From an uncultured Stigonema sp. (GTDB lineage Bacteria > Cyanobacteriota > Cyanobacteriia > Cyanobacteriales > Nostocaceae): a stretch of 40,583 nt of DNA. Location of the stretch: contig CAZZXJ010000001.1 of assembly GCA_964657905.1 (NCBI GenBank), forward strand, positions 1 to 40,583. The letters run 5' to 3'. Positions 3,284 to 32,357 of this stretch are shown piece by piece (positions within the stretch are counted from its first letter, which is position 1; every line of letters begins with the position of its first letter). The position numbers and the translations under genes are program-made. The notes beneath the pieces are model-generated. The model did not search any database. It saw nothing but the letters and a program-made list of their open reading frames with translations, and was not told where the DNA came from.

Positions 3284-6200
3284 TTAGTAGTGTAAATTGG
3301 ATAACTGCTGTTGTGGATTAGCGACAATATTTTCCAACAAAAGCTGGAAATTTCCCGCCATTCGGTCAATAGTAGTGGCATCAAACAAATCCTTACTGTA
3401 GCTCCACGCCAGATGGAGCAACCCTTTTTGTTGGCTAACAATCACGAATAAATCAAAACTTAACCCAATCCTACCGTACATAAATTGGCTCTCGACTTCT
3501 AGTCCTGGTACTTTAACTTCATTGTCGTCTAAATTACTGAAATCACTAATCATGTTAAACCATACCTGTAATATTGGCTTCTGTATCAAATCCCACTCTA
3601 GCTCTTCTAACAGCTTTGAAAATGGTAGTTCCTGGTGTGTATAAGCTGAGTTCGTCACCTGTTGCAACTGACTCGACAACTCTTTAAATGTCGAGTTTAA
3701 AGAAAGCTCAGTACGTATGATCAGCGTATTAGAAAAGAAGCCTATTAACCCTTCAAGCTCTGTGCGACTACGACTAGCAACAGGCACAGTTACTAGAATG
3801 TCAGGCTGTTCAGTATAATGGTATAGTAAAGTCTTCAATGCTGCCAGTAAAATCACAAACAACGTCACTCCTTCCCTTTTGGAAAGCGCCTTCAGCTTTT
3901 GTGTGAGGACATTGGGCAGTATGCAAATCTGTGTGCCAATCTGGAAGGACGGAACTGGTGGTCTGGGTCTGTCTGCTGGTAAGTTCAGCATAGTTAGATT
4001 GCCACCTAGCTGCTGCTTCCAATATGCCACCTGTTTCTCCAGTAATGCCCGCATCTGCTCGCGCTGCCAAATGGCAAAGTCAGCGTATTGAATGGGCAGT
4101 TCCTGTAGAGGTGAGGGCAAGCCCGTGGAGAAGGACTTATAGAGTATCATTAACTCTCTCATGAATATATTCATAGACCACCCATCTAAGATAATGTGGT
4201 GTATGTTCACTAGCAGCACAGACTTCTCATCTTGGAGCCGTAATAAAGTAAATCGCACCAACGGGTCGCAGGCTAGATCAAAGGAACGCTCGGATTCCTC
4301 TGTAGCCAGCCGCTGTGCTTCTTTGTCCCGCGCCTGATTTGGAAGCTCATGGAGATCCACCACTGGCAATTTCATATTGAGGTTGTGGGTAATAATCTGC
4401 ACAAGGCTACCATCCACCTCAGCAAAGTTTGTCCGCAATGATTCGTGACGTTGAACAATCTCGTTAAGGCTGTGGTTTAGGGACTTAACATTGAGGCAGC
4501 CGGTGAAGTGTATGCAAAAAGAAAGTATTAAAAAGCTACTATGTGGTAGAAACTGGTTTGCTCCCCAGGCCGACTCTTGTGTAAAAGACAGAGGTAAGTT
4601 TCTATCTCGTGAAACCGGAACAAGCGGTAAGTTAGTTTCCTTGCCGATCGCTGTAATAAGTGCGCCCCCCTCTTCTGCTGTAGTTCGCAGTGCCTCAAGG
4701 TTATCAGCTAAGTCAGCTACAGTAGGAGACGCAAATAAACGCTGTAAAGACAACTCAACAGAGAAAGCGTCGCGCAAGCGAGAAATTAATTGACTAGCCA
4801 GAAGGGAGTTTCCCCCCAGTTCAAAAAAGTTGTCATGTATGCTTATTTGCGGTGTGCCTAAAACTTGCTGCCAAATTTGCGCAATTTTTCGTTCTACCTG
4901 GTTGCGAGGTGCTACGTACTCCCCTGCTTCGTGACGAATAAACCGTCGCACCAATTCGTCTCGATCAATTGCGCCGCTTAAGGTGAGGGGCATTTCTAAT
5001 AGCTGTACTAAGTTGCAGGTACTGTGAGTTCCAAAGCGGTCTTGCACCCGACAGTCTGCTAATTTAACAACGGAAGAACTGCTATTAGCAGTGAAATAGG
5101 CAGTTAATTTCTGCAAACCAAGAGCTTCGGACTCCAAACGTCGAATGTTTTGGTTGTTGCCATCTAAACCTATCAATAAGTACGCTTGGTCATGGTTTAA
5201 CCCTGCAAGCATTGAAGATAGCCCTTGGGAGGAGGCCATGGCATAGTAACCTTTGGCGCGGGTTAGATTCTTCATCTGATACCCTTGACTCATCCCTGTC
5301 TCATCCCACATACTCCAAGCAAAACAATAGCTGCGTAATGCACTGTTGTCTTTTTGGTAATGGGAAAAGCGATCAAGAAAACTATTGGCAGCAGCATAAG
5401 CGCCTACAGCCTTGCCTCCAAAGAAACCGTTTACGGAAGAAAAGTTGATAAAAATGCTGTCTGCATTGTCTTTGATCAGTTGATGCAGCATCCAAGTACC
5501 CAACATCTTGGGACGCAGCACTGCTGCTAAGTTCTCCTGGGTTTCTTCAACCACATGTTGCTCGTGGAATGTTCCAGCTAGATGGATTACCCCATCTAGA
5601 TCTTTGCCCCATCGGAATTTAGCTTTTTCGACGATTGTCAGCAACTGTTCCAAGTCACAGATATCAGCGGCAGAGTAAATGACTTCTCCCCCAAGCATCT
5701 GTAGTTCTTCGTAAGCTTTAATCCGCTGCGAAATAGCATCTCCTGCCTCTAGATGGGCATTCCAGGTTCTTTTTTCCGGTAAAGGAGTTCTTCCTACCAA
5801 CAGTAGCCGAGCTTGGTAATATTTCAGCAGATACTGGGCAATTTGGATACCCACACCTCCCAGTCCTCCGCTGAGGAGATAAATTCCTCTTTGCTTGAAG
5901 GGTATTTCTTGCTTTGGTTCGTGCAGATTCACTTTTTCCAAACGCGGAACAAAACGCTGCCCATTCCTGATGGCTATCTCTGGTTCTTTTGTCGGGACGA
6001 GGAGTTCTTGTAAAATATAAGCCCCATTTGTTTCAACTAGATCAAACGGCAAATCGATGTGGCGACAGTTCAACGAGGGCAGTTCTTGGGGAATGGTTTT
6101 CAGCAGCCCCAAGACTGTGGATTTTTCATAAGCTATCGGGTCAGTTGACAAAACGGACTGGATATGGGAGGAAATGAATAGCAACTGAACACCATGCTCA

Positions 6201-8968
6201 GAACCCAGAACTTTGGCTGTTGCTTGAACTAAGAACAATAAACTGTATATTCCTTGTTCTTGCGCTTGTTCGAGAGCATCAAGGCTTTTGACGCTAATAT
6301 ACTGGTCGTAAGTCCAGAGGTGAAGAATCTGCCCAATCACAATGTTATCTGCTGCCAGAGATTCGAGCAAGATTTGATAATGGTCTGCTTTACCGGGAGC
6401 GATTGTATAGCGATCGCGACTGATTTGAAGAAAATCCGCTCCGCAACAGACACTTACGTAGGGCAGATTATGCTCTGAGAGTATTTGACATAAATATGCT
6501 CCCAATCCGCAAGGGTCGAGAAATATTAGAGTGGAATTTCTTAAAGGCAGAGAATAATTATTAAAAGTAACTGTGCCTTTTGGCTGCCAAACTTGACGGT
6601 AGAACCAGTCAGGAATGGTATTGGCATTGCCCAGTAATATATCAATCCGTTTAAGAATTGCTTGAAACTCTCCTGCCAAAAAGCGTTGGCTCAGTTGAGT
6701 ACGCTGGATTTTGCCAATGGCTGTTTTGGGAATAATTTCCTTATCTACTGGAATTAAATAATCTGGATTTACTCCCACGCTGTTAACTACACAAGTGCGA
6801 ATTTCCTTCAGGAGATTCACCAAACTGCCATCGTCCGAAAAAGAAGTATTGAAAAAGATAGCTAATTTATCAGTATTAATTCTAGGTTCTCTGACTGCAC
6901 AGGCAGCTGTATAAGAGACTTCTACCCCTTCAACTTCTTCAACGGCGGCTTCGATTTCGTGGCAGTAGTAGTTAAGTCCATTGATGATAATTACATCTTT
7001 CTGCCGCCCGGTAATAGTTAAACATCCTTGACGAAGAAATCCTAAATCTCCCGTGTTAAACCAGCCATCAGATGTAAAAGCTTCTTGGTTAGCTTGGGAA
7101 TTTTGGTAGTAACCAGAAGTGACGGAAGCACCTTTTACCTGCACCCTGCCAATTGTCTCGGACTCAACGACTTGGTTTTGGGTATCTACAATCCGCACGG
7201 CAAATCCGGGAATAGGCGATCCCACTTCTACAAATTTTTGTTCATCTGTAGTTGAGTTCAACAAAAAACTGTCAGAAAAGGTAACTCCTGAAGATGTCTC
7301 AGACATTCCCCATGAAGGGTGCATTGCCGTGGTAGGCAGTTGATATGATTCCAGTAACAGCAAAAATCTTCTTGCTGTTTTAGCAACGATAGCTTCACCT
7401 CCATTGAGGATGAATCGCATTGAAGATAAATCCCATGTGGGAGTGGACTGGGTTTTTAGCTTTTCTAGTTGCTCATTGATCAGACCATAGGCAAAATTCG
7501 GTGCCCAGGTAATCGTGGCTCGATAACGGGAAATCCAATCTAACCATCTTGTCGGTTCCTGCAAAACTAATTCTGTGGGAGCATGGATTTGCTGGCAACC
7601 TAGATAAACATCCCGGACATGGAACATGATGATTCCCCCAACATGGTCGAGGGGAAACCAATTTAAAGAGACATCCTCTTGTGTAAAACTGTTCATCGCA
7701 ACCGTACCAGCACAACGTCCGATCAAACTGCTGTGACTCTGCATTACAGCTTTAGGCGTACCTGTGCTTCCAGAAGTCAAAAGTAAAATCGCCAAATCCT
7801 CTGGCTGGCTGCTATGCCAGTTTAGATCCGGTTCGCAGTCGCGCAGCTGATCAATAGTTTCAACTTGAAAGTTTTCTAAATGCAAAAGCCTTGACAAACC
7901 ACAAATCTTAGGATAGTAAGAAGCGTCTGTCAGCACAAGGGGTTTCCCCAGCATCTGCCAAGTATTCTGAAGTTTGCGGGTAGTACTGTTGATTTGCTCT
8001 TCGGTTGGAGCGATTGCTATTGGCACCGGCACAAAGCCCCCCAGCACGCAGCCCCAAAAAGCTGGGATGAAATCTTGATTGTGTTCTAGTTGAAAAATTA
8101 CTTTGTCTTGGGGCTTGAGTCCTAGCTTTTTCAACCCTGCTAAAATTCTTTGTGCATCCTGCCACAATTGCTGATACGATTGAATTTTCTCGCTGCCATC
8201 CGACCGAATGTATACGATACCTTTAGTTGACTGTTGCGCGGCGAGTTGGAGTACCTCCCCTAAAGTTTTTGGAGCGTCTTGGGGGTAGTGCAGGGGTTCT
8301 CCGTAAGTGATGGCTAGCTTTTTTGCCTCTGGCGTTGGCGTAGCCCCCGGCAGGCATCGCTGATTTTCTATTTTCTCGGTGGGTGTGGTTGCTTGTGCCT
8401 GAGGCTGGCTATCTTCAACTGTGATCGCTTGAGTGTGGCTGAGCAAATCCTCTAAATGGAGAGGGGGGATACTCTTTACCAGTTGCTCAACTACCACCGC
8501 CACCCGATCAACTTCTGACAATGACTGTAGTTCCTGTTCTATACGTTGCATCAAGTCAGAGTCAATCACTTCTAAACTGGTTAGAGTGGCTGAGTCCACC
8601 TGTCCTGTATCTGTTAGGGGTATGGTGGAAACTGGCACGTAAGCTTTTGGCTGCAAAGCTTTTGGCACAATCCCTTGCCATTGGGATTGGATTTGGGCTG
8701 GGGATACAGGCAGACTGGAGACAATGTAAGCAACTAATTCGGGTTGACAGGTTGCCGTTTCCCTCACTAATACAGCACAGTCAGTAAGGGTTGGCTCCTG
8801 CAACAGCAGCAAGCTTACTTGGTGTGCAAGCTGTTGTAGATACTGTTGTATCTCCTTTTCCTCGATTGTCTCTGCTGGTTGTTCTTTTCGCTGAGCTAAG
8901 TGTTGTCGCAGTTGTTCTCTTTCGAGACTATTCACTGCTTGCATTTCCCAAAACCGATTTGAATTCAT
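3284..8968 (-). CDS. NRPS-like megasynthase: vestigial A_sub, FAAL-like acyl-AMP ligase (AL), KR, T, C-terminal condensation domain
   Basis: 1894 aa. Approximate domain map from manual motif reading follows. Vestigial A_sub: aa 33-130, nt 8579-8872 (LVAYIVSS, PLTDTGQVD with no Lys). AL: aa 222-765, nt 6674-8305 (FIPAFWGCVLGGFVPVPI, LLLTSGSTGTPKAV, TWAPNFAY, WGMSETS, GWFNTGDLGF..GRQKDVIIINGLNYY, IPKTAIGKIQR). KR: aa 775-1290, nt 5099-6646 (GIYLLSGGLGGVG, VIHLAG, YAAANSFLD). Second A10-like remnant: nt 4949-5041 (VQLLEMPLTLSGAIDRDEL). T: nt 4694-4915 (FFELGGNSL). C: nt 3299-4606 (HHIILDGWS). The protein ends at the C-A linker (ANPQQQLSNLHY). Confidence 0.9.
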   Translation of the reverse strand: MNSNRFWEMQAVNSLEREQLRQHLAQRKEQPAETIEEKEIQQYLQQLAHQVSLLLLQEPTLTDCAVLVRETATCQPELVAYIVSSLPVSPAQIQSQWQGIVPKALQPKAYVPVSTIPLTDTGQVDSATLTSLEVIDSDLMQRIEQELQSLSEVDRVAVVVEQLVKSIPPLHLEDLLSHTQAITVEDSQPQAQATTPTEKIENQRCLPGATPTPEAKKLAITYGEPLHYPQDAPKTLGEVLQLAAQQSTKGIVYIRSDGSEKIQSYQQLWQDAQRILAGLKKLGLKPQDKVIFQLEHNQDFIPAFWGCVLGGFVPVPIAIAPTEEQINSTTRKLQNTWQMLGKPLVLTDASYYPKICGLSRLLHLENFQVETIDQLRDCEPDLNWHSSQPEDLAILLLTSGSTGTPKAVMQSHSSLIGRCAGTVAMNSFTQEDVSLNWFPLDHVGGIIMFHVRDVYLGCQQIHAPTELVLQEPTRWLDWISRYRATITWAPNFAYGLINEQLEKLKTQSTPTWDLSSMRFILNGGEAIVAKTARRFLLLLESYQLPTTAMHPSWGMSETSSGVTFSDSFLLNSTTDEQKFVEVGSPIPGFAVRIVDTQNQVVESETIGRVQVKGASVTSGYYQNSQANQEAFTSDGWFNTGDLGFLRQGCLTITGRQKDVIIINGLNYYCHEIEAAVEEVEGVEVSYTAACAVREPRINTDKLAIFFNTSFSDDGSLVNLLKEIRTCVVNSVGVNPDYLIPVDKEIIPKTAIGKIQRTQLSQRFLAGEFQAILKRIDILLGNANTIPDWFYRQVWQPKGTVTFNNYSLPLRNSTLIFLDPCGLGAYLCQILSEHNLPYVSVCCGADFLQISRDRYTIAPGKADHYQILLESLAADNIVIGQILHLWTYDQYISVKSLDALEQAQEQGIYSLLFLVQATAKVLGSEHGVQLLFISSHIQSVLSTDPIAYEKSTVLGLLKTIPQELPSLNCRHIDLPFDLVETNGAYILQELLVPTKEPEIAIRNGQRFVPRLEKVNLHEPKQEIPFKQRGIYLLSGGLGGVGIQIAQYLLKYYQARLLLVGRTPLPEKRTWNAHLEAGDAISQRIKAYEELQMLGGEVIYSAADICDLEQLLTIVEKAKFRWGKDLDGVIHLAGTFHEQHVVEETQENLAAVLRPKMLGTWMLHQLIKDNADSIFINFSSVNGFFGGKAVGAYAAANSFLDRFSHYQKDNSALRSYCFAWSMWDETGMSQGYQMKNLTRAKGYYAMASSQGLSSMLAGLNHDQAYLLIGLDGNNQNIRRLESEALGLQKLTAYFTANSSSSVVKLADCRVQDRFGTHSTCNLVQLLEMPLTLSGAIDRDELVRRFIRHEAGEYVAPRNQVERKIAQIWQQVLGTPQISIHDNFFELGGNSLLASQLISRLRDAFSVELSLQRLFASPTVADLADNLEALRTTAEEGGALITAIGKETNLPLVPVSRDRNLPLSFTQESAWGANQFLPHSSFLILSFCIHFTGCLNVKSLNHSLNEIVQRHESLRTNFAEVDGSLVQIITHNLNMKLPVVDLHELPNQARDKEAQRLATEESERSFDLACDPLVRFTLLRLQDEKSVLLVNIHHIILDGWSMNIFMRELMILYKSFSTGLPSPLQELPIQYADFAIWQREQMRALLEKQVAYWKQQLGGNLTMLNLPADRPRPPVPSFQIGTQICILPNVLTQKLKALSKREGVTLFVILLAALKTLLYHYTEQPDILVTVPVASRSRTELEGLIGFFSNTLIIRTELSLNSTFKELSSQLQQVTNSAYTHQELPFSKLLEELEWDLIQKPILQVWFNMISDFSNLDDNEVKVPGLEVESQFMYGRIGLSFDLFVIVSQQKGLLHLAWSYSKDLFDATTIDRMAGNFQLLLENIVANPQQQLSNLHY
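5099..8305 (-). other. AL-KR cassette, copy 3 (FAAL-like ligase plus PKS-type ketoreductase)
   Basis: See the motifs listed for CDS 3284..8968. The cassette is bracketed by Lys-less A10-like segments at nt ~8579-8872 and 4949-5041. Confidence 0.8.
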
Positions 8969-8997
8969 TGTCTGTTTCTCACTAATCTAGTGTTGTA

Positions 8998-10305
8998 TTA
9001 AACGGTAGTTACTGGCTGCTTTGTCTTTGCTAGTTGTTCCAGCAGTTGAGCTGCATGACTCGGACCATCGAGCGCTGATAAGGTCGCACTCAAGCGTTTT
9101 GCATCGGTGCTGTAGGAATTATCGGAAAGCACGCGCAGTATTGCGGCACGTAGTGTCTTCGGCGTACAGGCTCTAGCGGAAACAAACTCGCCAACACCAG
9201 CCTCGTGGCAGCGGCGAGCGTTCTCTGGCTGATCAGCGGCTTGAGGAACCACTACCAGTGGCTTACCCGCAAGTAAAGTTGCCATGGTCGCGCCGCTACC
9301 GCCGTTGCAGAGTACTGCTGTAGCGTGCGGCAAAATTAGGTGTTGCGGGACATATGATTCCGCACGAACGTTAGGTGGCAGTGTACCGAGGGATGCCGGA
9401 TCGTTGTTTTTTCCTAAAGTGGCGAATAGATTAAACTCTTGTCCTGCCGCTGCTGCTACCACAGTGCGAAAGAAGTCGAGGGCGTTGTGAACTGTGCCTG
9501 CGGTGCAATAAATCAGCGGCTTGTGGTCCTTAAAGGGATTCTCCCAAATTGCCGCTTCATTACTTTCCTTCCATAAACAAGGACCAACGTAATGCACTTG
9601 CGGAGGTAGGTCGGTGCCGGGAAAGTCGAAGGCAGTGCTGCTAGGGATAGTATGCAGATAGGGCGAGAGCAAATAGGGTAAAAGTAAGTTGTTTTGCCAC
9701 GAAACATCATCGCTGGGAAGTCCCTCAGCGGCACGAACTGTTTTCCACTCTTGCAAACTAGAGCGTGTTACAAGACCAACGAAGTGGCGTAGAAGACGAG
9801 CTTTCTGGCGTTGAATCAGAGTCTGCGGTGGCGCAGTACCTAAACCCCATGGTTGAAGATCGCGGGAGGGTAGGGGACATGTTATAAAACCGGAATGTAC
9901 GGCCCAAGGAATTCCTTCCTTCTGTGCAACCAGTGAAACCCCATAGGTCGCCTCGCCACCAACCAACACATCAGGCAACCAGTTTCTCATGTTCTCTCGA
10001 AGGTCACGAGCTTGTGGAAGAGCAACGTTGGCAAAGAAGCTTCTGATCATCGCCTTTGACCGTGGTAACTTTAGAAGGACTTCCGGGAGAGTCGGTGGGC
10101 GGGTTATGGGCTTTATCCAGTCCAGAGTCGCTTCCCATGCACGCGGTGCCATATAAGTCAACCCCAAATTGCTGACAACGTTGGCATATTTGACAGCGGT
10201 TAGTATGGCAACCTCATGTCCGCGCTGCTTAAGGGCGATCGCCACTGGTAAAGTTGGGTGTATATGCCCTGCTGCACCGTAAACACAAAACAAAAATCGA
10301 GCCAT
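8998..10305 (-). CDS. GT1-family (GT-B fold, MGT/UDP-glycosyltransferase-like) glycosyltransferase
   Basis: 435 aa. N-terminal FCVYGAAGHIHPTLPVAIALKQRGHEVAILT. C-terminal nucleotide-sugar motif region VLCNGGSGATMATLLAGKPLVVVPQAADQPENARR. It lies 35 nt after the TE-bearing PKS gene and 29 nt before the last megasynthase gene. Confidence 0.85.
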   Translation of the reverse strand: MARFLFCVYGAAGHIHPTLPVAIALKQRGHEVAILTAVKYANVVSNLGLTYMAPRAWEATLDWIKPITRPPTLPEVLLKLPRSKAMIRSFFANVALPQARDLRENMRNWLPDVLVGGEATYGVSLVAQKEGIPWAVHSGFITCPLPSRDLQPWGLGTAPPQTLIQRQKARLLRHFVGLVTRSSLQEWKTVRAAEGLPSDDVSWQNNLLLPYLLSPYLHTIPSSTAFDFPGTDLPPQVHYVGPCLWKESNEAAIWENPFKDHKPLIYCTAGTVHNALDFFRTVVAAAAGQEFNLFATLGKNNDPASLGTLPPNVRAESYVPQHLILPHATAVLCNGGSGATMATLLAGKPLVVVPQAADQPENARRCHEAGVGEFVSARACTPKTLRAAILRVLSDNSYSTDAKRLSATLSALDGPSHAAQLLEQLAKTKQPVTTV

Positions 10306-23800: not shown

Positions 23801-26800
23801 CCAACCATAACAGCGGATCTTGTAGAACCAATTGGGTGGGAGCATGAATCTGTTGGCAACCGAGATAAACGTCGCGAACATGGAACATCACCAGACCGCC
23901 TACATGGTCGAGTGGAAACCAATTCAACGAGACATCAAGGCTGGTAAAATTATTGACTTGAGCGCTAGCTGCCGAACGGCTTAAAAGAGCACCATGGCTC
24001 TGCATCACCGCTTTGGGAATGCCTGTGCTGCCTGAAGTCAAAAGCAAAATCGCTAAATCTTCTGGCTGGCTGACATGCCAATTTTGGTCATCTTCACACC
24101 GACGCAAGTCCTCAAGCGTTGCTAATTGAAAGTTTTCTTTCTTCAATTGCTTTGACCAGGAATTAATCGCCTCTGCGGTGTGTGTACTTGTGAGTACTAT
24201 TGGTCGCCCCAGCATCAGCCAAGTATTCTCCAGCTTGCGAGTGGCACTGTTGTCTTCAGAGTAGGTCGGAGCGATGGCGATCGGTACTGGAACAAAGCCC
24301 CCCAGCACACAACCCCAAAAGGCAGGGATGAAATCTTGATTTTGCTCCAACTGGAAAATCACCTTGTCCTGTGGCTTCAAACCCAGCTTTCTTAATCCCG
24401 CTAGAATTCGCTGCGCTTCCCGTAGTAAATCCCCATAAGATTGATTGATCTGGCTGCCATCTGACTGGATGTAGACGATTCCTTTGGTTGGGCTGTGTTT
24501 GGCTGCCCGGTGTAGGGCTTGTGCTACAGTCATCGGGGCATCAGCAGGAAGCTGTAGTGGTTGACCATGACTGATGGCTGGCTTGTTTGACCCCGATTTC
24601 TCATTGAAAGCCTCCCCCAGTTCTGCTGTTGTTCCTGCAAGTAACTCGCTGGTTTCAAATGCGGTGGCTTGAGAATTAGGAAGCAAGTCTGATAGATGTA
24701 GCGGCGGCAGGCGAAACACCTGCTCAGTAACCACCACCGCCACCTGTTCAATCGAGGGCAGCGCTTGCAGTTGCTCTTCCCATTTTTGCACCAAGTCAGA
24801 TTCAATTACCTCAAGACTTGCCAAGGCTTGTTCGTCCACCTGTCCGGCTGGTGTTAACGGCACTTTAGACAACTGCACATAGGCACACGGTAGCATGTAA
24901 GCTGGCAGAAGGGTTTGCAAGTGGGATTGCAGCTGCTCTGGATTGAAGGCTCCGGATAAAACTACGTATGCAACCAGTTGCCAACCTGTAGCTTCTGTTT
25001 CCCGCACCAGCACCTTAGCATCCTCCACAGAAGGAGCCGCCAACAACGCTGCTTCGACCTCTTCAAGGTCTAAGCGGTTTCCTTTAATCCAAGTCTGCCG
25101 ATCGCAAGACCCTAGCAGTTCCAGTGTGCCATCGATTTGGCGGCGTCCTAACTCACCTGTCTTGAACAAACGAGCCTCTGTGGTTTGGCTGAAGGGATTT
25201 TTGACAAAGCGCTGCGCCGTCTCCAACTCAGCCTGGACGTAGCCCCGTGCCAAACCCGTGCCGCCAACATAGATTTCCCCCTTCACCCCTACTGGTACTG
25301 GTTGTAAGTACTGATCCAAAACGTAAACAGACCGATAAGTGGGATGACCTATGGGCAGGGTCTGTTGGATGCCGAGGGATTGACTAGCATTGCTAGTCAA
25401 CTCTCCTGCTGCCTCTGGTAGACTGTAAAGATTGTGTAACTCACACCTGAAATGCGCTCTGAACGTCTCGGCGACTGAGCGTCGCAACGGCTCGCCACTG
25501 CACAGCACCAAACGCAGCGAACTCAATTGCGCCTTTTTATCCCCACTACTAAAGGCAACAAAAGCTGACAGTGCGCTGGGGACTAAGCCAATTACGCTCA
25601 CCTTTTGACTGGATATCAGGCGCTGCAAGTCGGCGGCATCGTCAGGGCTGTTAGCATCTGCAATTATCAAACGTGCTCCAACAACTAGGGGCCAAAAGAT
25701 TTCCCTGACTGCTGTATCCTGAGCTAAAGAGGCTTGGTCCAACACTGCATCAGACTCACATAGGACAAAGGTCTTTTGCAGCCATTCCAGACGCTGACTT
25801 ACCCCGCAATGCTCTACTTGAACCCCTTGCCTCGACGAATAGATCACGTAAGCAAGGTTTTCAGGCGTTGCCCCATGCACGGGGTTTTCCTCGCTCTGCT
25901 GTGTAATTACTGAACGGTGTGACTCCCAGCAGATGACCTGCGCCTTGTGCTCTGGTAAACGCTCTACCAGATGCTGTTGGCTCAACAACACTGATGGCTT
26001 CGTTTGTGCCAATATCAACCGCAATCGCTCTTGGGGTAGTTGCGGGTCTAAGGGCACATATGCGCCTCCCGCCTTGAGAATGCCCAACAAACCCACTACC
26101 ATTTCCAGCGAACGTTCTACACAAATGCCAACCAAACTCTCCGCACTGATTCCCAGTTTTCGCAAGTAGTGCGCTATTTGATTGGCACGGGCGTTTAACT
26201 GCTGGTAGGTAAGTTGCTGGTTCTCAAAAACCACCGCTACCGCATTTGGATGGATTTGTACTTGCTCCTCAAATAGCTGATGGATACATTTGTTGTTTGG
26301 GAAATCATTATGGGTGCGAGTCCATTCCACCAACAGCTGATGCTGCTCTGTCTCAGTTAGCAGAGGTAATTCGCTAATGGGTTGGTCAGGATTGGCAACA
26401 ATTGCTGCAAGCAAAGTCTTGAAATGACTTGTCATCCTGGCAATGGTATTTGCCTCAAACAGGTCACTGCTATATTCCCACCAACCTATCAGTCCCTTTT
26501 TTGTCTCCCAAATCAACAAACTCAAATCGAACTGAGATGTTCCACGTTCTACCAGTTGGGGAGTCAGAGTAATATTGGGTAACTCCAATGTATCTAAGGA
26601 GAAATTCTCTAAGACAAACATTACTTGGAAAAGAGGATTATAGCTTAGAGAACGTTCTGGCTGTAATGCTTCTACGACTTGCTCATATGGAACATCTTGG
26701 TGAGCATAAGCGGACATTGCAACTTGCCGTACATCAGAGAGGAACTCAGAGAAACTGAGATTCCCTTTAATCTGGTTACGTAGCACCAGAGTGTTAACAA

Positions 26801-27875
26801 AAAAGCCAATAAGTGGCTCAATATCCCGGCGGTTACGGTTGGCAATCGGAGATCCAACACAAATATCATCTTGACCACTGTAACGATAGAGTAAAGTTAC
26901 GTAAGCCGCTAGTAGTGTATGAAACAAAGTAGTTCCTGACTTTTGGCTTAAGCTTTTGAGTTGCTCGGTCAAATTTGGGTCAAGTTGAAATTGCTTGCTA
27001 GCTCCTTGGTAAGTCTTAACTGGGGGGCGCGGTTTGTCTATGGGTAATTCTAACCAGGATGGAGCACCAGCTAAGTGTTGCTTCCAGTAGTTCAGTTGTT
27101 TTTCCAAGACTTTTCCAGTCAACCACTGTCGCTGCCAAACTGCAAAATCAGCGTACTGGATGGGCAAGTCGGGGAGGGGCAAAGGGTTGCGCTCAAGGAA
27201 AGCTCGATAAAGGGTAGACAACTCTTGGAAAAATATCCCCATTGACCAGCCATCTGTAATGATGTGGTGCATGGTCAATATCAGCACATGAGACTCTGAC
27301 CCCAGGTGCAGCAAAGTAACTCGCAACAAAGGACCCTTGCTCAAGTCAAAGGGTTGGCGAATCTCTTTGGTAACTATTTGTTGCACCTCTGCTTCTGGCA
27401 AACCCTGCAAATCCATCACTGGCATAGTAATTGTGAAGGTGGGAGCGATCGCCTGCACGGGTTTTCCATCGACTGCGGGAAATGTTGTCCGCAAACTTTC
27501 GTGGCGACGGATAATTTCGTTGATACTCTGTTCTAGAGCCGCTACATTCAGCGCACCCTGAAGGCGCAACTGGAAACTATCGTTGTAAAATGGGATCTGG
27601 CTTTCTAATTGATAGAGAAACCACATCCTCTGCTGGGCAAAAGATAAAGGCAACTCGACCGAACGCTCCACAGGCACTATTGGATTGGAATTGGAGTGTG
27701 TTGCACTCTTAGCTTCTTCTAGAAAGGCAAGGATTTCTGTTTTCCGCCCTAGCAGTTCCTTTTTTAGGTCTTGGTTCATCACTCCCAAGGGAGCGCGATA
27801 GCTTAGCTGATTGCCTTCAAGCCAAAGTTTTATCCCTAAACTATTCAAGTAAGACAAGAATTCTAACGTTGTCAT
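20820..27875 (-). CDS. Hybrid NRPS module: TubC_N-like docking, C, degenerate A (A*), FAAL-like acyl-AMP ligase, KR, T
   Basis: 2351 aa. The ATG directly abuts the upstream stop (TAG|ATG at 27873-27878). Docking domain: nt 27711-27875 (LEFLSYLNSLGIKLWLEGNQLSYRAP). C: nt 26376-27662 (HHIITDGWS). A*: nt 24816-26303 (see the separate feature). AL: nt 22941-24578 (LLLTSGSTGIPKAV, TWAPNFAY, WGMSETS, GWFDTGDLGF..GRQKDVIIINALNYY, IPKTAIGKIQR). KR: nt 21321-22913 (GGIYLVTGGLGGIG, IIHLAG, YSAANSFLD). A10-like remnant: nt 21180-21275 (VQLEEMPLTDTGAIDREQL). T: nt 20916-21140 (GGHSL). The C-terminal tail is acidic (DDDILAQLEQLDDDQ). Confidence 0.92.
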   Translation of the reverse strand: MTTLEFLSYLNSLGIKLWLEGNQLSYRAPLGVMNQDLKKELLGRKTEILAFLEEAKSATHSNSNPIVPVERSVELPLSFAQQRMWFLYQLESQIPFYNDSFQLRLQGALNVAALEQSINEIIRRHESLRTTFPAVDGKPVQAIAPTFTITMPVMDLQGLPEAEVQQIVTKEIRQPFDLSKGPLLRVTLLHLGSESHVLILTMHHIITDGWSMGIFFQELSTLYRAFLERNPLPLPDLPIQYADFAVWQRQWLTGKVLEKQLNYWKQHLAGAPSWLELPIDKPRPPVKTYQGASKQFQLDPNLTEQLKSLSQKSGTTLFHTLLAAYVTLLYRYSGQDDICVGSPIANRNRRDIEPLIGFFVNTLVLRNQIKGNLSFSEFLSDVRQVAMSAYAHQDVPYEQVVEALQPERSLSYNPLFQVMFVLENFSLDTLELPNITLTPQLVERGTSQFDLSLLIWETKKGLIGWWEYSSDLFEANTIARMTSHFKTLLAAIVANPDQPISELPLLTETEQHQLLVEWTRTHNDFPNNKCIHQLFEEQVQIHPNAVAVVFENQQLTYQQLNARANQIAHYLRKLGISAESLVGICVERSLEMVVGLLGILKAGGAYVPLDPQLPQERLRLILAQTKPSVLLSQQHLVERLPEHKAQVICWESHRSVITQQSEENPVHGATPENLAYVIYSSRQGVQVEHCGVSQRLEWLQKTFVLCESDAVLDQASLAQDTAVREIFWPLVVGARLIIADANSPDDAADLQRLISSQKVSVIGLVPSALSAFVAFSSGDKKAQLSSLRLVLCSGEPLRRSVAETFRAHFRCELHNLYSLPEAAGELTSNASQSLGIQQTLPIGHPTYRSVYVLDQYLQPVPVGVKGEIYVGGTGLARGYVQAELETAQRFVKNPFSQTTEARLFKTGELGRRQIDGTLELLGSCDRQTWIKGNRLDLEEVEAALLAAPSVEDAKVLVRETEATGWQLVAYVVLSGAFNPEQLQSHLQTLLPAYMLPCAYVQLSKVPLTPAGQVDEQALASLEVIESDLVQKWEEQLQALPSIEQVAVVVTEQVFRLPPLHLSDLLPNSQATAFETSELLAGTTAELGEAFNEKSGSNKPAISHGQPLQLPADAPMTVAQALHRAAKHSPTKGIVYIQSDGSQINQSYGDLLREAQRILAGLRKLGLKPQDKVIFQLEQNQDFIPAFWGCVLGGFVPVPIAIAPTYSEDNSATRKLENTWLMLGRPIVLTSTHTAEAINSWSKQLKKENFQLATLEDLRRCEDDQNWHVSQPEDLAILLLTSGSTGIPKAVMQSHGALLSRSAASAQVNNFTSLDVSLNWFPLDHVGGLVMFHVRDVYLGCQQIHAPTQLVLQDPLLWLDWIERYRATITWAPNFAYGLINDRASEVSLRCWDLSQMRFILNAGEAIVAKHARKFLELLAPHGLSATTMHPSWGMSETSSAVTFDHNFSLDSTTDEQKFVSVGAPIPGVSLRIVDPKNQVVQENTIGSLQVKGLTVTSGYYQNPELNLEVLTSDGWFDTGDLGFLHQGSLTITGRQKDVIIINALNYYSHEIESTVEELSGVEVSYTAAVAVRGASDHTDKLAIFFSPAVASEAEVVNLIKEIRSQVVQSIGINPDYLVPLEKSAIPKTAIGKIQRSHLRNRFEVGEFNDILKQLDINTGNANTLPDWFYHKIWRPKEAATYTAHLHTGPYLVFLDRLGLGKFICRELNRLNQPYITVEAGLKFAQLNRDCYCINPHQPDHYRLLLESLKAANFRITQILHLWTYNDYAGEVSSLEAIDEAQQQGIYSLMFLLQALAKVQGSEHSLQLQVISSHAQFTSSADKIAYEKSTLIGFLKTIPLELSWLQCRHIDLEIQSVEVNAEHILRELRIAGSDSEIAYRNGRRLSSSLAKVDMLQQQTQDIPLKQGGIYLVTGGLGGIGTYLCQFLIKEYGAKLITVGRTELPDRTEWSKHLDQESPLAKRIKNYLAIEAAGGEFIYRAVDICNLDGLLQVVADAESIWNEPLSGIIHLAGEGNLEYHWKVMDEHWVTVATPETFDSMLRPKVHGTWTLYQLIKNNSQAVFISFSSVNSVFGGATFSAYSAANSFLDCCSLYQRYHLHQQTYCFNWALWDDLGMSQGNPEYARDAARAMGYYIISKQQGLNSLLAALSGNHAHLIVGLDGSNRNIQRYTDSNCYAIQKLTAYFTASNNDSSFASFSELMVRDRFGTKSKSDFVQLEEMPLTDTGAIDREQLLTLGTPGRDASKWVGPTTEVERQLALIWQQVLSVAQMGIYDNFFELGGHSLLATQLMSRVGDVFQLELPLRSLFENPTVAELASAIVQRLAEQIDDDILAQLEQLDDDQVKAMLKAENTY
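21321..24578 (-). other. AL-KR cassette, copy 2
   Basis: See the motifs listed for CDS 20820..27875. The cassette lies between the A10-like PLTPAGQVDE and the A10-like PLTDTGAIDRE. Confidence 0.8.
24816..26303 (-). other. Catalytically degenerate canonical adenylation domain (A*)
   Basis: A1/A2 are intact (LTYQQLNARAN, LKAGGAYVPLD). A3 reads LAYVIYSSRQGVQVEH, so the GSTGxPKG P-loop is deleted. A5 reads NLYSLPEAAG rather than NxYGPTE. A7 reads FKTGELGRR rather than Y[RK]TGD. A8 reads WIKGNRLDLEEVE. A10 reads PLTPAGQVDE, with Gln in place of the invariant Lys. Confidence 0.8.
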
Positions 27876-30800
27876 CTATACGACTCCTTCTTCATATTTG
27901 TTTTCTGCGTCGTCAACAGATACACTCCACTCTTGGGCTGCAATTCGCAACGCCTCAATGCTCTGTTGCAAACCAGCTACAGTAGGAGATGCAAAAAAAC
28001 GATTTAGGGACAACTCTATAGAGAAAGCCTCGTGCAACCGAGAAATGACTTGGTAGGCTACCAGAGAATTTCCCCCCAGTTCAAAGAAGTTGTCGTGAAT
28101 GCCGATCTGGGGTATTCCTAGAACTTCTTGCCAGCTTTGAGCAATCTGCCATTCCATCTCATTTCTAGGGGCTACAGGCAACGCTCTAGCGGCGAACCCA
28201 TCACCTGTTTCCAGACAAGTCAAGCCCCTAACCAGTAAGTTTCGAGCAATTTCGCCCCTTGAGGTGAGGGGCATTTCCGGTAGCTGCACCAAGTTACAGT
28301 TAACGGTTGTTCCGAAGCGATCTAGCACCATCAAATCTGATAAACCAAGGACGGAAGAACCGTTGCTTACCGTGAAATAGGCAGTTAATTTCTGTAACAG
28401 TCCACCCGACTCTTTAGTAAAACGTTGAATTTTTGGATTGCTGCCATCTAAACCAACAATCAGCCGTGCTTGGTCATGGTACAAACCAGCCACGAAGGAA
28501 TACAGCCCTTCTTGGGGACTCATATCATAGTAACCTTGAGCGCGGGTCAGGTCTTGCCTCTGGTAACCCTTGTTCATCCCTATTTCACGCCAGATTGTCC
28601 AAGCAAAGCAATAACTCTGCAACAAACCAATAGAGCGCTGGTATTGGTTAAAGCTTTCCAGAAAAGTGTTGGCAGCAACATAAGCGCCAATAGTAGCTCC
28701 GCCAAAGAAACTCATCAAAGACGAAAAGCTAATAAAAACCCCCTGCCCTTGGTTCACAAGCACCTGATGCAGCACCCAGCCACCTAATACTTTGGGACGA
28801 AGCATGGCGGTTAAACTCTGCCGCGTTTCATCCAAGAGCATTTGCTCCTGGTAAATTCCTGCCAGATGGATCACCCCATCCAGCTTGCATCCCCAGCGAG
28901 ACTTGACCTGTTCCACCACCTGTTGTAATCGGGTAAAATCGCAGATATCCACTGCCTCATAAACCACTGCGTCCCCAAGCTGCGTTAATTCCTGGTAAGC
29001 CTTAATTTTTGCTGACATCTCTGTAGAAACCGAAGATCCAACGTCTTTACCGGGTAGAGGAGTCCGACCTACTAATAGCAACTTGGCATTAAAGGACTTA
29101 ATCAGATACCTAGCAATTTCAACCCCAACACCTCCAAGTCCGCCGGTGATGAGATACATCCCCCCCGGTTTAAAGGCAAGTTCTTGCTTTGATTTCTTTT
29201 GCAGATCTACTTTTTCCAAGCCTGCAACTAAACGCTGTCCATCGCGGTAAGCTACCTCTTGTTCTTTTGACAAAACCTGGAGTTCTTGGAGAATATAATC
29301 CCCATTTACCTCTACTTGGTTTGGTGGCAAATCTATATGGCGACAGTTCAACCAAGGCATTTCCTGGGGAATAGTTTTGACTACACCCAAAACTGGAGAT
29401 TTCTCATAAGCTATCAAGTCTGTTGGCTGTGTGAACTGGGTATAGCTGGAAATCAACAGCAACCGGACTGAATTTTCAGAACTCTGAACTTTTGCTAAGG
29501 CTTGGACGAGGAACAACAAACTGTAAATTCCTTGCTCTTGTGCGGACTCAAGAGCCTCTAAGCTAGATATTTCTCCGCCATATTCTTGATAATTCCACAA
29601 ATGGAGAATCTGCCCGAGCAGAAGGTTATTTGCTTTTAGGGTTGAGAGCAAGAACTGATAATGATCTGCATTTGAGGGAGCTAGACAGAAGTGGTTGGAA
29701 CTAAGTTGGGCAAAATCTGACCCGGATGAAACGCATACATAAGGCAGGTTCTGTTGTTCCAATTGCTTGCATAGAAACGTCCCTAATCCTAACTGGTCGA
29801 GGAATACTAGGGTAACGTCTGTGCGGGAGAGAGTATTCAAGATCGCTGCTTTCTTACGGCGCCAGACTTTTTGGTAGAACCAGTCGGGAATCGTGTTGGC
29901 ATTGCCTAGTAATATATCAACCCGTTTAAGAATGTCGTTGAACTCACCAACCTCAAAGGACTTTCTCAGATGCGATCGCTGAATCTTGCCAATAGAGGTT
30001 TTGGGAATTGCCGACTTCTCCACCGGAACCAGATAGTCTGGATTGATGCCAATGCTTTGAACAACTTGACTGCGGATTTCTTTAGTGAGCTTGACAACCT
30101 CTGCCTCCGAGGCGACTGTGGGACTGAAGAAGATTGCTAATTTATCTGTATGGTCACTAGCACCCCGGACGGCTACGGCTGCCGTATATGAAACCTCGAC
30201 ACCACTAAGCTCTTCTACTGTCGATTCAATTTCATGACTGTAGTAGTTGGCACCGTTAATGATAATCAGATCTTTCTCGCGTCCGGTAATTGTCAGGCAT
30301 CCCTGGTTGATCAAAGCTAAGTCTCCAGTTCTGAACCATCCATCTTCCGTAAAAACTTCCCGGTTCAATTCTTCGTTATTATAATACCCTGACATTACAG
30401 TCTTTCCACTGACCTGTAGAGAACCAATGGTATCTTCACATACCACCTGGTTGTGACTATCGACAATCCGCAATTTTACTCCGGGAATCGGTGTTCCCAC
30501 GCACACAAATGAATCATCATCTGTTGATAACACCGAAAAGTTATTTGAGTAGGTGACACCACTAGACACTTCCGCCATACCCCAAGCAGGGTGCATGGCA
30601 CTTGGGCTGAGCTGATGAGGAGCAAGCAGTTCCAAAAACCGCCTCGCTGTCTTCGCGACGATGGATTCAGCTCCGTTCAAGACAAATTTCAGACACGATA
30701 AATCCCAATGCCGTTGGCTAATCTCTGAGGCTAAGTTATTGATCAGCCCAAAAGCGAAGTTGGGGGCAAAGGTGATGGTGACTCGATGTTGCTCAATCCC

Positions 30801-32357
30801 ATCCAGCCACAAGAGAGGTTCACGTAGAACCAGTTGGGCGGGAACCTGGATTTGTTGGCAACCTAAATAAACGTCCCGAATCTGGAAATATATGATGCCC
30901 GCAACATGATCCAGAGGCATCCAGTTTAAAGTCACATCATCCCGGGAAAAACCGTTCATTTGAATCGAGCCAACCGTTCTACTTAACAGATTTTCATGGC
31001 TGAGCACGACGCCTTTAGGCATACCCGTGCTTCCGGAAGTGAGAACTAGCAGCGCCATATCATCCGGCGGGCTAACATGCCAATTTTGGTCATGTTCACA
31101 CCGACGCAAGTTATCAACCGTCGTCAGTTGAAAGTTTTCTTTCTTCAATCCCTTTGACCAGGAATTAATCGCCTCTGCTTGAGTTGCACTTGTCAGCACT
31201 ATTGGTCGCCCCAGCATCAGCCAAGCATTCTCCAGCTTGCGAGTGGCACTATTGTCTTGCAAGTAGGTCGGGGCGATTGCTATTGGCACTGGAACAAAGC
31301 CCCCCAGCACACAACCCCAAAAGGCAGGGATGAAATCTTGATTTTGCTCCAACTGGAAAATCACCTTGTCCTGTGGCTTCAAACCCAGCTTTCTTAATCC
31401 CGCTAGAATTCGCTGCGCTTCCCGTAGTAAATCCCCATAAGATTGATTGATCTGGCTGCCATCTGACTGGATGTAGACGATTCCTTTGGTTGGACTGTGT
31501 TGGGCTGCCCGGTGTAGGGCTTGTGCTAGAGTCGTCGGGGCATCAGCAGGAAGCTGTAGTGGTTCACCATGACTGACGGCTGGCTTGTTTGACCCGGATT
31601 TGTTTTTGCTCGTCTCTGGATGCGTTGGGGATCCTGTAAGCAAGTCGCTCCCATTGCCGACGACGGCTTGACAATCACCTAGCAAATCTGATATATGCAG
31701 CGGCGGCAAGCGAGACACCTGCTCTTGAACTACCACCGCCACCTGTTCAATAGATGGCTGCGTGAGCAGTTGCTCTTCCCATCTTGACACCAAATCGGAG
31801 TCAATTACCGGAAGACGCGCCAAGGCAAGTTCATCCACCTCTCCCGTGGCCGTCAGTGGCAGGGTGGACAACGGTACATAGGCGCACGGTAGCACAGCGG
31901 CGGGGATAATAGCTTGCAAATGGGATTGCAGATGTTCTGGATTGAAGGCTCCTTTTAAAACTATGTAAGCCACCAGTTGCAGACCTTCTGTTTCTGTTTC
32001 CCGCACCAGCACCCAGGCGTCCTCTACCGCAGGTGTCATTAATAACGCAGCTTCCACTTCCTGAAGGTCTACCCGGTTTCCTTTAATCAAGGTATGGCAA
32101 TTGCCTGAACCTAGCTGGGCAAATGACAGAGGCTTGTCCCCCTCTCCTGAGACTCTTACACGGGGTAGGTCAGTATCACTTGCACTCATGTTGCACAAGC
32201 GCAGCAACATAATAAGCTCAGTCTCATACTTACTCAGTAAATCACGTAGCTCTAGTGTCAGTACTCCCTTGGGATCGCCTATGCGTAACTCGTCACCATC
32301 AGCGCACAGATTGACACCCTGCTCGGAGAGTTCAGCTATTAATTGATTAAGGTTCAT
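27876..32357 (-). CDS. NRPS-like protein: TubC_N-like docking, C-domain scar, vestigial A_sub, FAAL-like acyl-AMP ligase, KR, T
   Basis: 1493 aa. First gene of the operon. Docking domain: nt 32202-32357 (LIAELSEQGVNLCADGDELRIGDPKG). C1-motif scar PLSFAQ: nt 32115-32132, fused directly to the A8-like IKGNRVDLQEVEAALL. Vestigial A_sub: nt 31818-32096 (PLTATGEVDE, no Lys). AL: nt 29943-31574 (LVLTSGSTGMPKGV, TFAPNFAF, WGMAEVS, GWFRTGDLAL..GREKDLIIINGANYY, IPKTSIGKIQR). KR: nt 28383-29915 (GGMYLITGGLGGVG, VIHLAG, YVAANTFLE). A10-like remnant: nt 28230-28322 (VQLPEMPLTSRGEIARN). T: nt 27948-28169 (GGNSL). Confidence 0.9.
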   Translation of the reverse strand: MNLNQLIAELSEQGVNLCADGDELRIGDPKGVLTLELRDLLSKYETELIMLLRLCNMSASDTDLPRVRVSGEGDKPLSFAQLGSGNCHTLIKGNRVDLQEVEAALLMTPAVEDAWVLVRETETEGLQLVAYIVLKGAFNPEHLQSHLQAIIPAAVLPCAYVPLSTLPLTATGEVDELALARLPVIDSDLVSRWEEQLLTQPSIEQVAVVVQEQVSRLPPLHISDLLGDCQAVVGNGSDLLTGSPTHPETSKNKSGSNKPAVSHGEPLQLPADAPTTLAQALHRAAQHSPTKGIVYIQSDGSQINQSYGDLLREAQRILAGLRKLGLKPQDKVIFQLEQNQDFIPAFWGCVLGGFVPVPIAIAPTYLQDNSATRKLENAWLMLGRPIVLTSATQAEAINSWSKGLKKENFQLTTVDNLRRCEHDQNWHVSPPDDMALLVLTSGSTGMPKGVVLSHENLLSRTVGSIQMNGFSRDDVTLNWMPLDHVAGIIYFQIRDVYLGCQQIQVPAQLVLREPLLWLDGIEQHRVTITFAPNFAFGLINNLASEISQRHWDLSCLKFVLNGAESIVAKTARRFLELLAPHQLSPSAMHPAWGMAEVSSGVTYSNNFSVLSTDDDSFVCVGTPIPGVKLRIVDSHNQVVCEDTIGSLQVSGKTVMSGYYNNEELNREVFTEDGWFRTGDLALINQGCLTITGREKDLIIINGANYYSHEIESTVEELSGVEVSYTAAVAVRGASDHTDKLAIFFSPTVASEAEVVKLTKEIRSQVVQSIGINPDYLVPVEKSAIPKTSIGKIQRSHLRKSFEVGEFNDILKRVDILLGNANTIPDWFYQKVWRRKKAAILNTLSRTDVTLVFLDQLGLGTFLCKQLEQQNLPYVCVSSGSDFAQLSSNHFCLAPSNADHYQFLLSTLKANNLLLGQILHLWNYQEYGGEISSLEALESAQEQGIYSLLFLVQALAKVQSSENSVRLLLISSYTQFTQPTDLIAYEKSPVLGVVKTIPQEMPWLNCRHIDLPPNQVEVNGDYILQELQVLSKEQEVAYRDGQRLVAGLEKVDLQKKSKQELAFKPGGMYLITGGLGGVGVEIARYLIKSFNAKLLLVGRTPLPGKDVGSSVSTEMSAKIKAYQELTQLGDAVVYEAVDICDFTRLQQVVEQVKSRWGCKLDGVIHLAGIYQEQMLLDETRQSLTAMLRPKVLGGWVLHQVLVNQGQGVFISFSSLMSFFGGATIGAYVAANTFLESFNQYQRSIGLLQSYCFAWTIWREIGMNKGYQRQDLTRAQGYYDMSPQEGLYSFVAGLYHDQARLIVGLDGSNPKIQRFTKESGGLLQKLTAYFTVSNGSSVLGLSDLMVLDRFGTTVNCNLVQLPEMPLTSRGEIARNLLVRGLTCLETGDGFAARALPVAPRNEMEWQIAQSWQEVLGIPQIGIHDNFFELGGNSLVAYQVISRLHEAFSIELSLNRFFASPTVAGLQQSIEALRIAAQEWSVSVDDAENKYEEGVV
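28383..31574 (-). other. AL-KR cassette, copy 1
   Basis: See the motifs listed for CDS 27876..32357. The flanks of the AL are near-identical at nucleotide level to copy 2, while its core (about 30250-31075) is divergent. Confidence 0.8.

Follow-up and report, generated by a model that had tools for sequence, protein, structure and literature searches.

A 40,583-nt stretch of DNA from an uncultured Stigonema sp. (positions 1 to 40,583 of contig CAZZXJ010000001.1, assembly GCA_964657905.1; hereafter the window) carries a synthetase gene cluster in which a ligase domain followed by a ketoreductase (KR) domain occurs three times, in the genes here called P1, P2, and P5. Each ligase-KR unit lies between two sequences that resemble A10, a motif of the C-terminal subdomain (A_sub) of adenylation (A) domains, and that lack its catalytic lysine. 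What are these flanking pieces, and how did the same nested arrangement come to be present three times in one cluster? An earlier reading of the sequence, without database searches (the sequence-only reading), had proposed that the whole unit sits inside, or beside a duplicate of, an ancestral A_sub, and that this composite was then propagated within the cluster. The answer reached here is partly different, and we consider it very probable: the three cassettes would be alpha-keto-acid modules of nonribosomal peptide synthetases (NRPSs), of the StsA/CesA/CrpD/Dol15D type, with a keto-acid ligase (KAL) and KR inserted in the first hairpin of a pseudo-A_sub and a dead A domain (Ax) upstream. Both remnants would be non-catalytic scaffold and the composite ancient, with sequence conversion between P1 and P2 a local matter and P1 shaped by a deletion.

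Anatomy of the three cassettes

P1, P2, and P5 are the three genes encoding a ligase, a KR, and a carrier (T) domain. Coordinates are those of the whole window, and translations are from the minus strand, on which all the large genes of the window lie.

27876-32357, minus: P1, 1493 aa. Pfam finds a TubC_N docking domain, AMP-binding_C (100-172), AMP-binding (282-659) with an FAAL/DIP2-like C-terminal part, KR with its structural subdomain, and PP-binding. Layout: docking, condensation-domain C1-motif scar, Ax A_sub remnant, pseudo-A_sub N half, KAL, KR, pseudo-A_sub C half, T.
32115-32132, minus: P1 C1-motif scar PLSFAQ (aa 76-81), fused straight to the A8-like LGSGNCHTLIKGNR.
31806-32114, minus: P1 Ax A_sub remnant (aa 82-184), with A8-like IKGNRVDLQEVE, A9-like LPCAYVP, and A10-like PLTATGEVDE (aa 167-176, nt 31830-31859; Lys to Glu).
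31680-31805, minus: P1 pseudo-A_sub N half (aa 185-226), a helix and a strand, DSDLVSRWEEQLLTQPSIEQVAVVV..PPLHISDLL, aligning with the A8 helix and first A_sub strand, and with StsA residues 26 onward.
29943-31574, minus: P1 KAL (aa 262-805), with intact A3 TSGSTGMPKG, Gly-Met WGMAE, TGDL, and A10 PKTSIGKIQR.
28428-29885, minus: P1 KR, structural and catalytic subdomains (aa 825-1310; Pfam Beta-ketacyl_N and KR), keeping GGLGGVG, K, S, and Y..N.
28224-28406, minus: P1 pseudo-A_sub C half (aa 1318-1378), LQKLTAYFT..VQLPEMPLTSRGEIARN, without Lys; the motif VQLPEMPLTSRGEIARN itself at 28239-28289.
27948-28160, minus: P1 T domain (aa 1400-1470), GGNSL; Pfam PP-binding E 2e-15.

20820-27875, minus: P2, 2351 aa. 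Pfam finds a docking domain, Condensation (74-515), AMP-binding in two stretches, AMP-binding_C (939-1011), a second AMP-binding, KR, and one PP-binding. Layout: docking, condensation (C), Ax (full-length, motif-dead), pseudo-A_sub N half, KAL, KR, pseudo-A_sub C half, T, i.e., a five-domain C-Ax-KAL-KR-T.
25101-26273, minus: P2 Ax core (aa 535-925), A3 P-loop deleted; A1, A2, and A6 kept.
24807-25100, minus: P2 Ax A_sub (aa 926-1023), Pfam AMP-binding_C at 939-1011 (E 3e-8), with A10-like PLTPAGQVDE (aa 1006-1015, nt 24831-24860; Lys to Gln).
24681-24806, minus: P2 pseudo-A_sub N half (aa 1024-1065).
22938-24569, minus: P2 KAL (aa 1103-1646).
21381-22880, minus: P2 KR (aa 1666-2165).
21174-21356, minus: P2 pseudo-A_sub C half (aa 2174-2234), with the motif VQLEEMPLTDTGAIDREQL at 21183-21239.

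3284-8968, minus: P5, 1894 aa. Pfam finds AMP-binding, KR, PP-binding, and a terminal Condensation. Layout: Ax A_sub remnant, pseudo-A_sub N half, KAL, KR, pseudo-A_sub C half, T, and a terminal C domain ending at the C/A linker.
8567-8857, minus: P5 Ax A_sub remnant (aa 38-134), A8 part degenerate, aligning position by position with its counterparts in P1 and P2; A10-like PLTDTGQVDS (aa 117-126, nt 8591-8620).
8441-8566, minus: P5 pseudo-A_sub N half (aa 135-176), EVDRVAVVV..PPLHLEDLL.
4940-5122, minus: P5 pseudo-A_sub C half (aa 1283-1343), with the motif VQLLEMPLTLSGAIDRDEL at 4952-5008.

Aligned over the whole cassette, A8-like region through carrier, P1 (45-1475) and P2 (881-2324) are 62% identical in amino acids, and P5 (50-1421) and P2 (939-2314) are 57% identical; the three cassettes also surface as three-copy DNA repeat families. 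The sequence-only reading was correct that every unit is flanked on both sides by A10-like motifs without lysine: each motif it quoted is present on the minus-strand products, and the three post-KR motifs fall inside the ranges it gave. Some details were drawn too broadly. The shared linker SIEQVAVVV..PPLH[IL]SDLL is found in P1 and P2, and P5 has the variant listed above; an A8-like motif is present in the upstream pieces of P1 and P2, while that of P5 has no recognizable A8-like KGxR stretch. A lysine-bearing A10, the ligase's IPKT.IGKIQR, does occur once per cassette, but it is the only one just within the cassettes: the two A domains of the neighboring protein P3 have NGKVDR and NGKIDR.

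A predicted split A_sub-like domain around the ligase and KR

By profile comparison, a single predicted A_sub-like domain, split by the ligase-KR insert, has the so-called linker as its first half and the post-KR piece as its second. The predicted split point is the first beta-hairpin, where the insert separates strand ..AVVV..E from strand ..L(T/V)AY... Among PDB structures, P1 matches best 6ULW, the A-KR-T structure of StsA (E 6e-242, aa 197-1460), in an alignment that begins exactly at the "linker"; next come the McyG A domain (4e-181) and 6ULX, the keto-acid A domain of StsA (1e-149). In StsA, about 30 N-terminal and about 70 post-KR residues make up a "pseudo Asub domain" without catalytic residues (PMC10510592, section 2.2.5; PMC8341866).

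To compare the two halves together, the pre-ligase piece (DSDL..AVVV..) was joined to the post-KR piece (LQKLTAYFT..MPLT..G.I.R) in a spliced profile of 39 non-redundant homologues. Aligned by hhalign with the profile of the contiguous upstream remnant, it gives 96% probability (E 1.3e-9) over 82 colinear columns that run across the splice; 20 column-shuffled controls give P 0.06-0.6, and with the A10-like motif removed the alignment still spans the splice (P 0.001). Searched against PDB, the spliced profile (30 sequences) finds the A_sub of LgrA (2.4e-11), GrsA/PheA (1AMU residues 443-523, 4e-9), TycA (1.5e-7), and McyB (3e-7), and further those of BmdB, McyA, and SrfA-C. These matches cover profile positions 8-90 and end at the canonical PLT.NGK.DR; at this A10 position of the pseudo-A_sub, the lysine is missing in P1, P2, and P5.

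Could the flanks be ordinary inter-domain linkers after all, in which PLT..G resembles A10 by chance or convergence? Pfam searches at E up to 10 leave the isolated post-KR and the spliced pseudo-A_sub pieces unmatched, and phmmer with the post-KR piece against PDB returns only chance matches (mucin, ureidoglycolate hydrolase). The profile matches, on the other hand, are significant and colinear over some 80 columns, the shuffled controls fail, the upstream pieces of P1 and P2 pass the Pfam gathering threshold, and the StsA structure builds its pseudo-A_sub from the equivalent segments (PMC10510592). Plain linkers are hardly credible as an explanation; the pseudo-A_sub pieces look like linker because single-sequence and Pfam searches miss their similarity to A_sub.

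The blank Pfam and phmmer searches nevertheless count against the interpretation adopted here, and three other points stand with them. The evidence that the post-KR piece is part of an A_sub comes from profile methods and from review accounts of the StsA structure. The homologues in the profiles were picked by regular expressions requiring the A10-like motif, which somewhat inflates the score and which the truncated control remedies in part. Finally, McyG, the second-best PDB match, loads phenylpropanoids without a dedicated alpha-KR, so that ligase homology alone is no proof of a keto-acid substrate.

A true "interrupted A domain," with a catalytic A_sub split by an insert, was considered and rejected: the A_sub of the ligase is uninterrupted and carries its lysine before the KR, while the post-KR A10-like motif has none. 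The two alternatives of the sequence-only reading thus appear to be true at once. The insert splits one A_sub-like domain, and it lies beside a second, separate and contiguous, which belongs to a dead A domain. The remnants do have significant profile similarity to A_sub, and each module contains three A_sub-type units: that of Ax, the split pseudo-A_sub, and the functional one of the ligase.

A probably dead adenylation domain upstream

The upstream piece, as judged from its alignments, is the contiguous A_sub of a putatively dead A domain, Ax, and is distinct from the pseudo-A_sub. In P1 it covers positions 1-75 of the 76 in the Pfam AMP-binding_C profile (E 7.5e-11), and the scores of both P1 and P2 (E 3e-8) exceed the gathering threshold; the P5 piece, searched alone, gives E 0.017. 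Only P2 has the domain at full length. Its motif states were read from an alignment with both P3 A domains and three orthologues:

A1, A2, A6, A9: kept.
A3: five-residue P-loop deletion, LAYVIYSS-----RQGV vs. LAYV.YTSG[ST]TG.PKGV.
A5: NLYSLPE (GPTE to SLPE).
A7: TGE (Asp to Glu).
A8: GSCD (Arg to Ser).
A10: AGQVDE vs. NGK[VI]DR (Lys to Gln).

The A3 deletion is identical in the three P2 Ax orthologues, which come from other genomes. From these residues, neither of the Lys-less A10 motifs is predicted to be catalytic. By analogy with characterized systems, Ax would be inactive and the KAL the sole activating domain: in addition to the motif lesions there is the biochemistry of PyrG, which has tandem A domains with the same lesions in the first and activates its substrate only with the second (PMC10510592), and of AulA, the auriculamide synthetase (A1-A2-KR-PCP), in which A2 activates the keto acid (PMC5238615).

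Another possibility is that the P2 Ax is still active, so that two adenylation activities feed one carrier (with an alternative amino acid), or that it serves as a ligand-binding gatekeeper. It keeps A1, A2, A6, and A9 and has Asp at the equivalent of position 235, and it is under purifying selection as strong as that on catalytic domains (dN/dS 0.17-0.18). Against this are the loss of five P-loop residues in A3, the altered residues in A5, A7, A8, and A10, the PyrG precedent (PMC10510592), the dispensability of the first A domain in AulA (PMC5238615), and the existence of P1 and P5 without any Ax core. We regard an active Ax as very unlikely.

A single operon holds three stages of Ax reduction: complete in P2, from A8 to A10 with a scar in P1, and only the part after A8 in P5. 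Partial Ax regions keeping A6-A10 have been described as a "continuum of domain reduction" (PMC13643306), of which this series is a compact natural illustration; it also suggests truncation points that may be tolerated when depsipeptide modules are engineered.

Selection on the non-catalytic parts

Ratios of non-synonymous to synonymous substitution (dN/dS) were estimated by the method of Nei and Gojobori. They should be read with caution, and this too weighs on the opposing side: dS is near saturation in several pairs, gene conversion disturbs the P1-P2 estimates, and the segments are short.

Ax core: 0.17-0.18.
Ax A_sub: 0.16-0.25 (P1 vs. P2: 0.25).
Pseudo-A_sub halves: 0.15-0.38.
C, KAL, and KR (for comparison): 0.1-0.28.
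Variable inter-domain linker before the ligase: 0.6-1.0.

The Ax and pseudo-A_sub parts are kept by purifying selection. Being constrained, they are most likely scaffold, positioning the KR, the carrier, and in P2 the C domain, and not decaying remains, which matters for the design of minimal modules. One argument against this comes from AulA, whose first A domain is dispensable for adenylation (PMC5238615): any scaffold role must then concern other steps. Purifying selection on the dead parts, together with the deletion scar described next, goes beyond the published accounts of such modules consulted here and is new in that sense.

A probable deletion junction in P1

The first 81 residues of P1 are colinear with P2 (docking domain, linker, and PLSFAQ, which is at aa 76-81 in both). 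From residue 82 onward P1 aligns with P2 from residue 921, LGSGNCHTLIKGNR vs. LGSCDRQTWIKGNR, with P1 82-95 corresponding to P2 921-934. P1 therefore looks like a P2-type elongation protein from which residues 82-920, the C domain and Ax core, have been lost. Among the 120 best database matches to P1, it alone has TubC_N without Condensation. Two other assemblies encode the same 1493-aa architecture, with five substitutions each. Chimeric assembly of the P1 N-terminus was considered as well and discarded, given these two assemblies and a junction that is not at a high-identity repeat.

P1 has a docking domain and the first C-domain motif and no C domain, while the C-terminus of P5 (3284-3320) is that of a C domain cut at the C/A linker, with no docking tail. 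These ends suggest one module split over two proteins at opposite ends of the operon.

Origin of the three copies

How did one cluster come to hold three cassettes? The sequence-only reading placed the ligase-KR unit in an ancestral A domain and had the resulting composite copied three times within this one cluster. The three cassettes do share their flanks and align end to end, and P1 and P2 share nucleotide tracts that are 94-100% identical. Outside these short conversion tracts, however, the copies are only 55-75% identical in nucleotides. Segment by segment, the best relatives of each cassette in other genomes (72-88% identical in amino acids) are throughout closer than its paralogues in the window (55-78%): the P1 KR shares 80% identity with proteins of Nostoc sp. 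CENA67, the P2 KR 88% with an Iphinoe protein, and the P5 KAL 85-86% with unrelated other proteins. The P1-P2 gene pair itself is already present in Nostoc sp. CENA67, where adjacent P1-type and P2-type genes are followed by C-A-T-TE.

The double-remnant layout is also far from private to this cluster. Almost all of the 120 best matches to P1 are from Nostocales; about 100 of them have the upstream [IL]PLT..G[EQ]VDE, and most of these also carry the post-KR MPLT..G.I[DN][RK]. Given the closer relatives elsewhere and this distribution, the composite unit appears to be old and widespread, with copies from three separate lineages; repeated propagation within the cluster, above all a recent one, is very unlikely, and this part of the sequence-only reading finds no support.

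Recent exchange between P1 and P2 would be limited to short gene-conversion tracts. Megablast with strict penalties brought out two: one pairs 31288-31601 with 24286-24599 (314 nt, 97.8% identical), and a second pairs 30025-30179 with 23020-23174 (about 98%), both in the 55-75% background noted above. The tracts cover the ligase N-terminus and the ligase A_sub, not the substrate-pocket region. In a P1 allele from another assembly (P0122), all five amino acid differences are at aa 265-369, around the first tract.

Recombination has left marks at other points. P1 is mosaic in build: in the Ax remnant and ligase it resembles P2-type elongation modules, and in the KR and T it resembles stand-alone loading proteins. 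When P2 is compared with a protein of a hapalosin-like cluster (L008 9628-16671), the docking and C domains are 35-41% identical and the stretch from Ax to T 69-87%; the predicted recombination break is at the C/A linker, with Ax-KAL-KR-T moving between clusters as a putative block. The N-termini of homologues vary: P0019 and P0026 have a complete Ax but no C domain, P0031 begins at A5, and P0002-4 begin at the A8 helix. Two Nostoc loading proteins (P0011 and P0020) have, in their N-terminal 230 aa, a tandem of Ax A_sub remnant plus pseudo-A_sub N half, with two upstream Lys-less A10-like motifs.

It seems conceivable, if on balance doubtful, that the two non-catalytic domains derived from A_sub, both actively maintained (dN/dS about 0.2), are independent of each other, that the KAL was never inserted into Ax, and that a pseudo-A_sub with the KAL and KR within it was instead transplanted as a block between the A10 motif and the carrier of a normal C-A-T module. 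The dead Ax would then persist as an obligatory scaffold, and the P1 junction and the terminal C domain of P5 would record the conversion in situ of an elongation module to a C-less module served in trans. If so, the Ax core and its A_sub could provide, e.g., a C:A_core platform and a surface on which the carrier docks, and the P1 and P5 junctions would mark natural break points for engineering hydroxy-acid modules.

Comparison with known systems

The architecture itself is known already: for keto-acid modules, both the pseudo-A_sub and an inactive A domain ahead of it have been published. The nesting is documented for StsA (PMC10510592, PMC8341866), for PyrG and AulA (PMC10510592, PMC5238615), and for Dol15D-M2 (PMC13643306), an outcome that the sequence-only reading had itself listed as counting against it.

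Like the StsA/CesA type (PDB 6ULW, 6ULX), the cassettes have an intact ligase and a polyketide synthase (PKS)-type KR, flanked by a helix-strand piece about 30 residues long and, after the KR, by one of about 70 residues; as in StsA, the Gly-Met motif is present and position 235 is hydrophobic. Unlike StsA, which aligns only from P1 residue 197, P1 has the additional contiguous Ax A_sub remnant (aa 82-184), and the post-KR pieces here are too diverged for detection by single sequences.

The dolastatin 15 paper (PNAS 2026) names the C-Ax-KAL-KR-T architecture, reports by assay that the embedded ligase activates 2-ketoisovalerate, finds that a helical element of Ax completes the pseudo-A_sub there, and counts 125 homologues with five domains and 337 with four, among them HcaB, HctF-M1, HapC, and CrpD-M2 (PMC13643306). 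Of the three proteins here, P2 has the five-domain order with a single carrier; P1 and P5, lacking an Ax core, do not. P2 shares its architecture with Dol15D-M2, PyrG, HcaB, HctF-M1, and HapC, including the loss of A3 and of the catalytic lysine in Ax (PMC13643306; PMC10510592). Unlike in those systems, it adjoins two reduced versions within the same cluster. Of Ax, P1 and P5 retain just the C-terminal portion, as do four-domain modules of the CrpD-M2 type and the stand-alone loading proteins, about 1400 aa long, that are common in Nostocales. They differ from that type in the fusion of the docking domain and first C motif to A8 in P1, found in none of the other 119 best matches, and in the terminal C domain of P5, ending at the C/A linker. 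AulA also has tandem A domains before its KR, but its source, Herpetosiphon, belongs to another phylum, it consists of one module only, and its specificity code differs (GIFWLGASGK).

Predicted chemistry and product

While anatomy, homology, motif states, selection, and mosaicism were computed here, the keto-acid chemistry is taken from the literature on homologues, and the module order and product are inferred. All three KALs have TSGSTG.PK, WGM[AS]E, TGDL, GR[EQ]KD, and PKT.IGKIQR (Pfam AMP-binding E 1e-51 or better). In an approximate mapping by hand onto StsA, P1, P2, and P5 have Val at the Asp235 position (DHV[AG]G) together with the Gly-Met motif (WGM[AS]E); a hydrophobic residue at Asp235 and the Gly-Met motif are tied to 2-keto recognition (PMC13643306). 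The KR follows the ligase directly in each case (Pfam KR E 1e-31 to 1e-39, with the structural subdomain) and keeps GGLGG[VI]G, LRPK, FSS, and AY.AAN. The specificity codes, also derived by hand, are:

P1: VAYFNAASGK.
P2: VGMWNGSSAK.
P5: VGMWNGSSGK.

The codes of P2 and P5 resemble those of CesA-A1 (VGMWNGTSIK), PksJ (VGMWNGASVK), and CesB-A1 (VGMWNGVSVK; PMC5238615, Table 1), and so approximately predict aliphatic keto acids, with a different substrate for P1. As the catalytic motifs of ligase, KR, and carrier are kept in all three, the expectation in the sequence-only reading of three reduced hydroxy-acyl units, if all are active, is a reasonable prediction.

By analogy with the homologues, the KAL, a member of the ANL family with its own lysine-bearing A_sub, would adenylate an alpha-keto acid and load it onto the carrier; the PKS-type KR would reduce it to the alpha-hydroxyacyl thioester; and a C domain would then form an ester bond via the new hydroxyl. 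The modules may act in the order P5, P1, P2, P3, P4. P5, which has no docking domain, would come first, and its terminal C domain (HHIILDG), ending at the C/A linker, would serve the C-less P1 in trans. P2 would follow, its own C domain making the second ester, and P3 would contribute two amino acids. P4 would add a malonyl unit and release the chain, which may leave as a pyrrolinone in the manner of dolastatin 15 (PMC13643306), and a glycosyltransferase may decorate a free hydroxyl. The predicted product is a glycosylated tri-hydroxyacid-dipeptide-ketide.

Other features of the cluster

The remaining genes that enter into this scheme are:

14240-20806, minus: P3, 2188 aa, C-A-T-C-A-T (Pfam).
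10341-14234, minus: P4, 1297 aa, KS-AT-ACP-TE (Pfam).
8998-10305, minus: glycosyltransferase, 435 aa (Pfam).

The cluster appears to be uncharacterized. It combines three consecutive hydroxy-acid modules with two for amino acids, a glycosyltransferase, and a terminal KS-AT-ACP-TE resembling the one of dolastatin 15; its product could be a new glycosylated depsipeptide from a Nostocales-type cyanobacterium. A TetR-family regulator and an MFS transporter (33233-35454, plus) lie upstream of the first synthetase gene and divergent from it, possibly for regulation and export of the product.

The glycosyltransferase gene sits between the PKS gene ending in TE and P5. In a genome scan its closest relatives (80-81%) were in Iningainema and Stigonema metagenome-assembled genomes, on short contigs. 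The Iningainema genome (L009 519-3268) keeps the PKS-TE/glycosyltransferase pair, followed not by P5 but by a stand-alone C-like protein of 462 aa with the motif HAIADG.

Just downstream of P5, at about 2511-3195 (minus), are two small open reading frames of 101 and 108 aa, which are kept in other assemblies; for the second (108 aa), the contig annotation has a precomputed Pfam CBF_beta match. The same or nearly the same contigs were found in several ENA and JGI assemblies.

P3 has internal repeats of its own. DNA tracts are 88-90% identical between its two modules (e.g., 15786-16085 vs. 18993-19292, and 16634-16933 vs. 19841-20140), the N-terminal parts of its two A domains are almost identical, and its two C domains are 82.5% identical, the first having HHIISDA in place of HHxxxDG.

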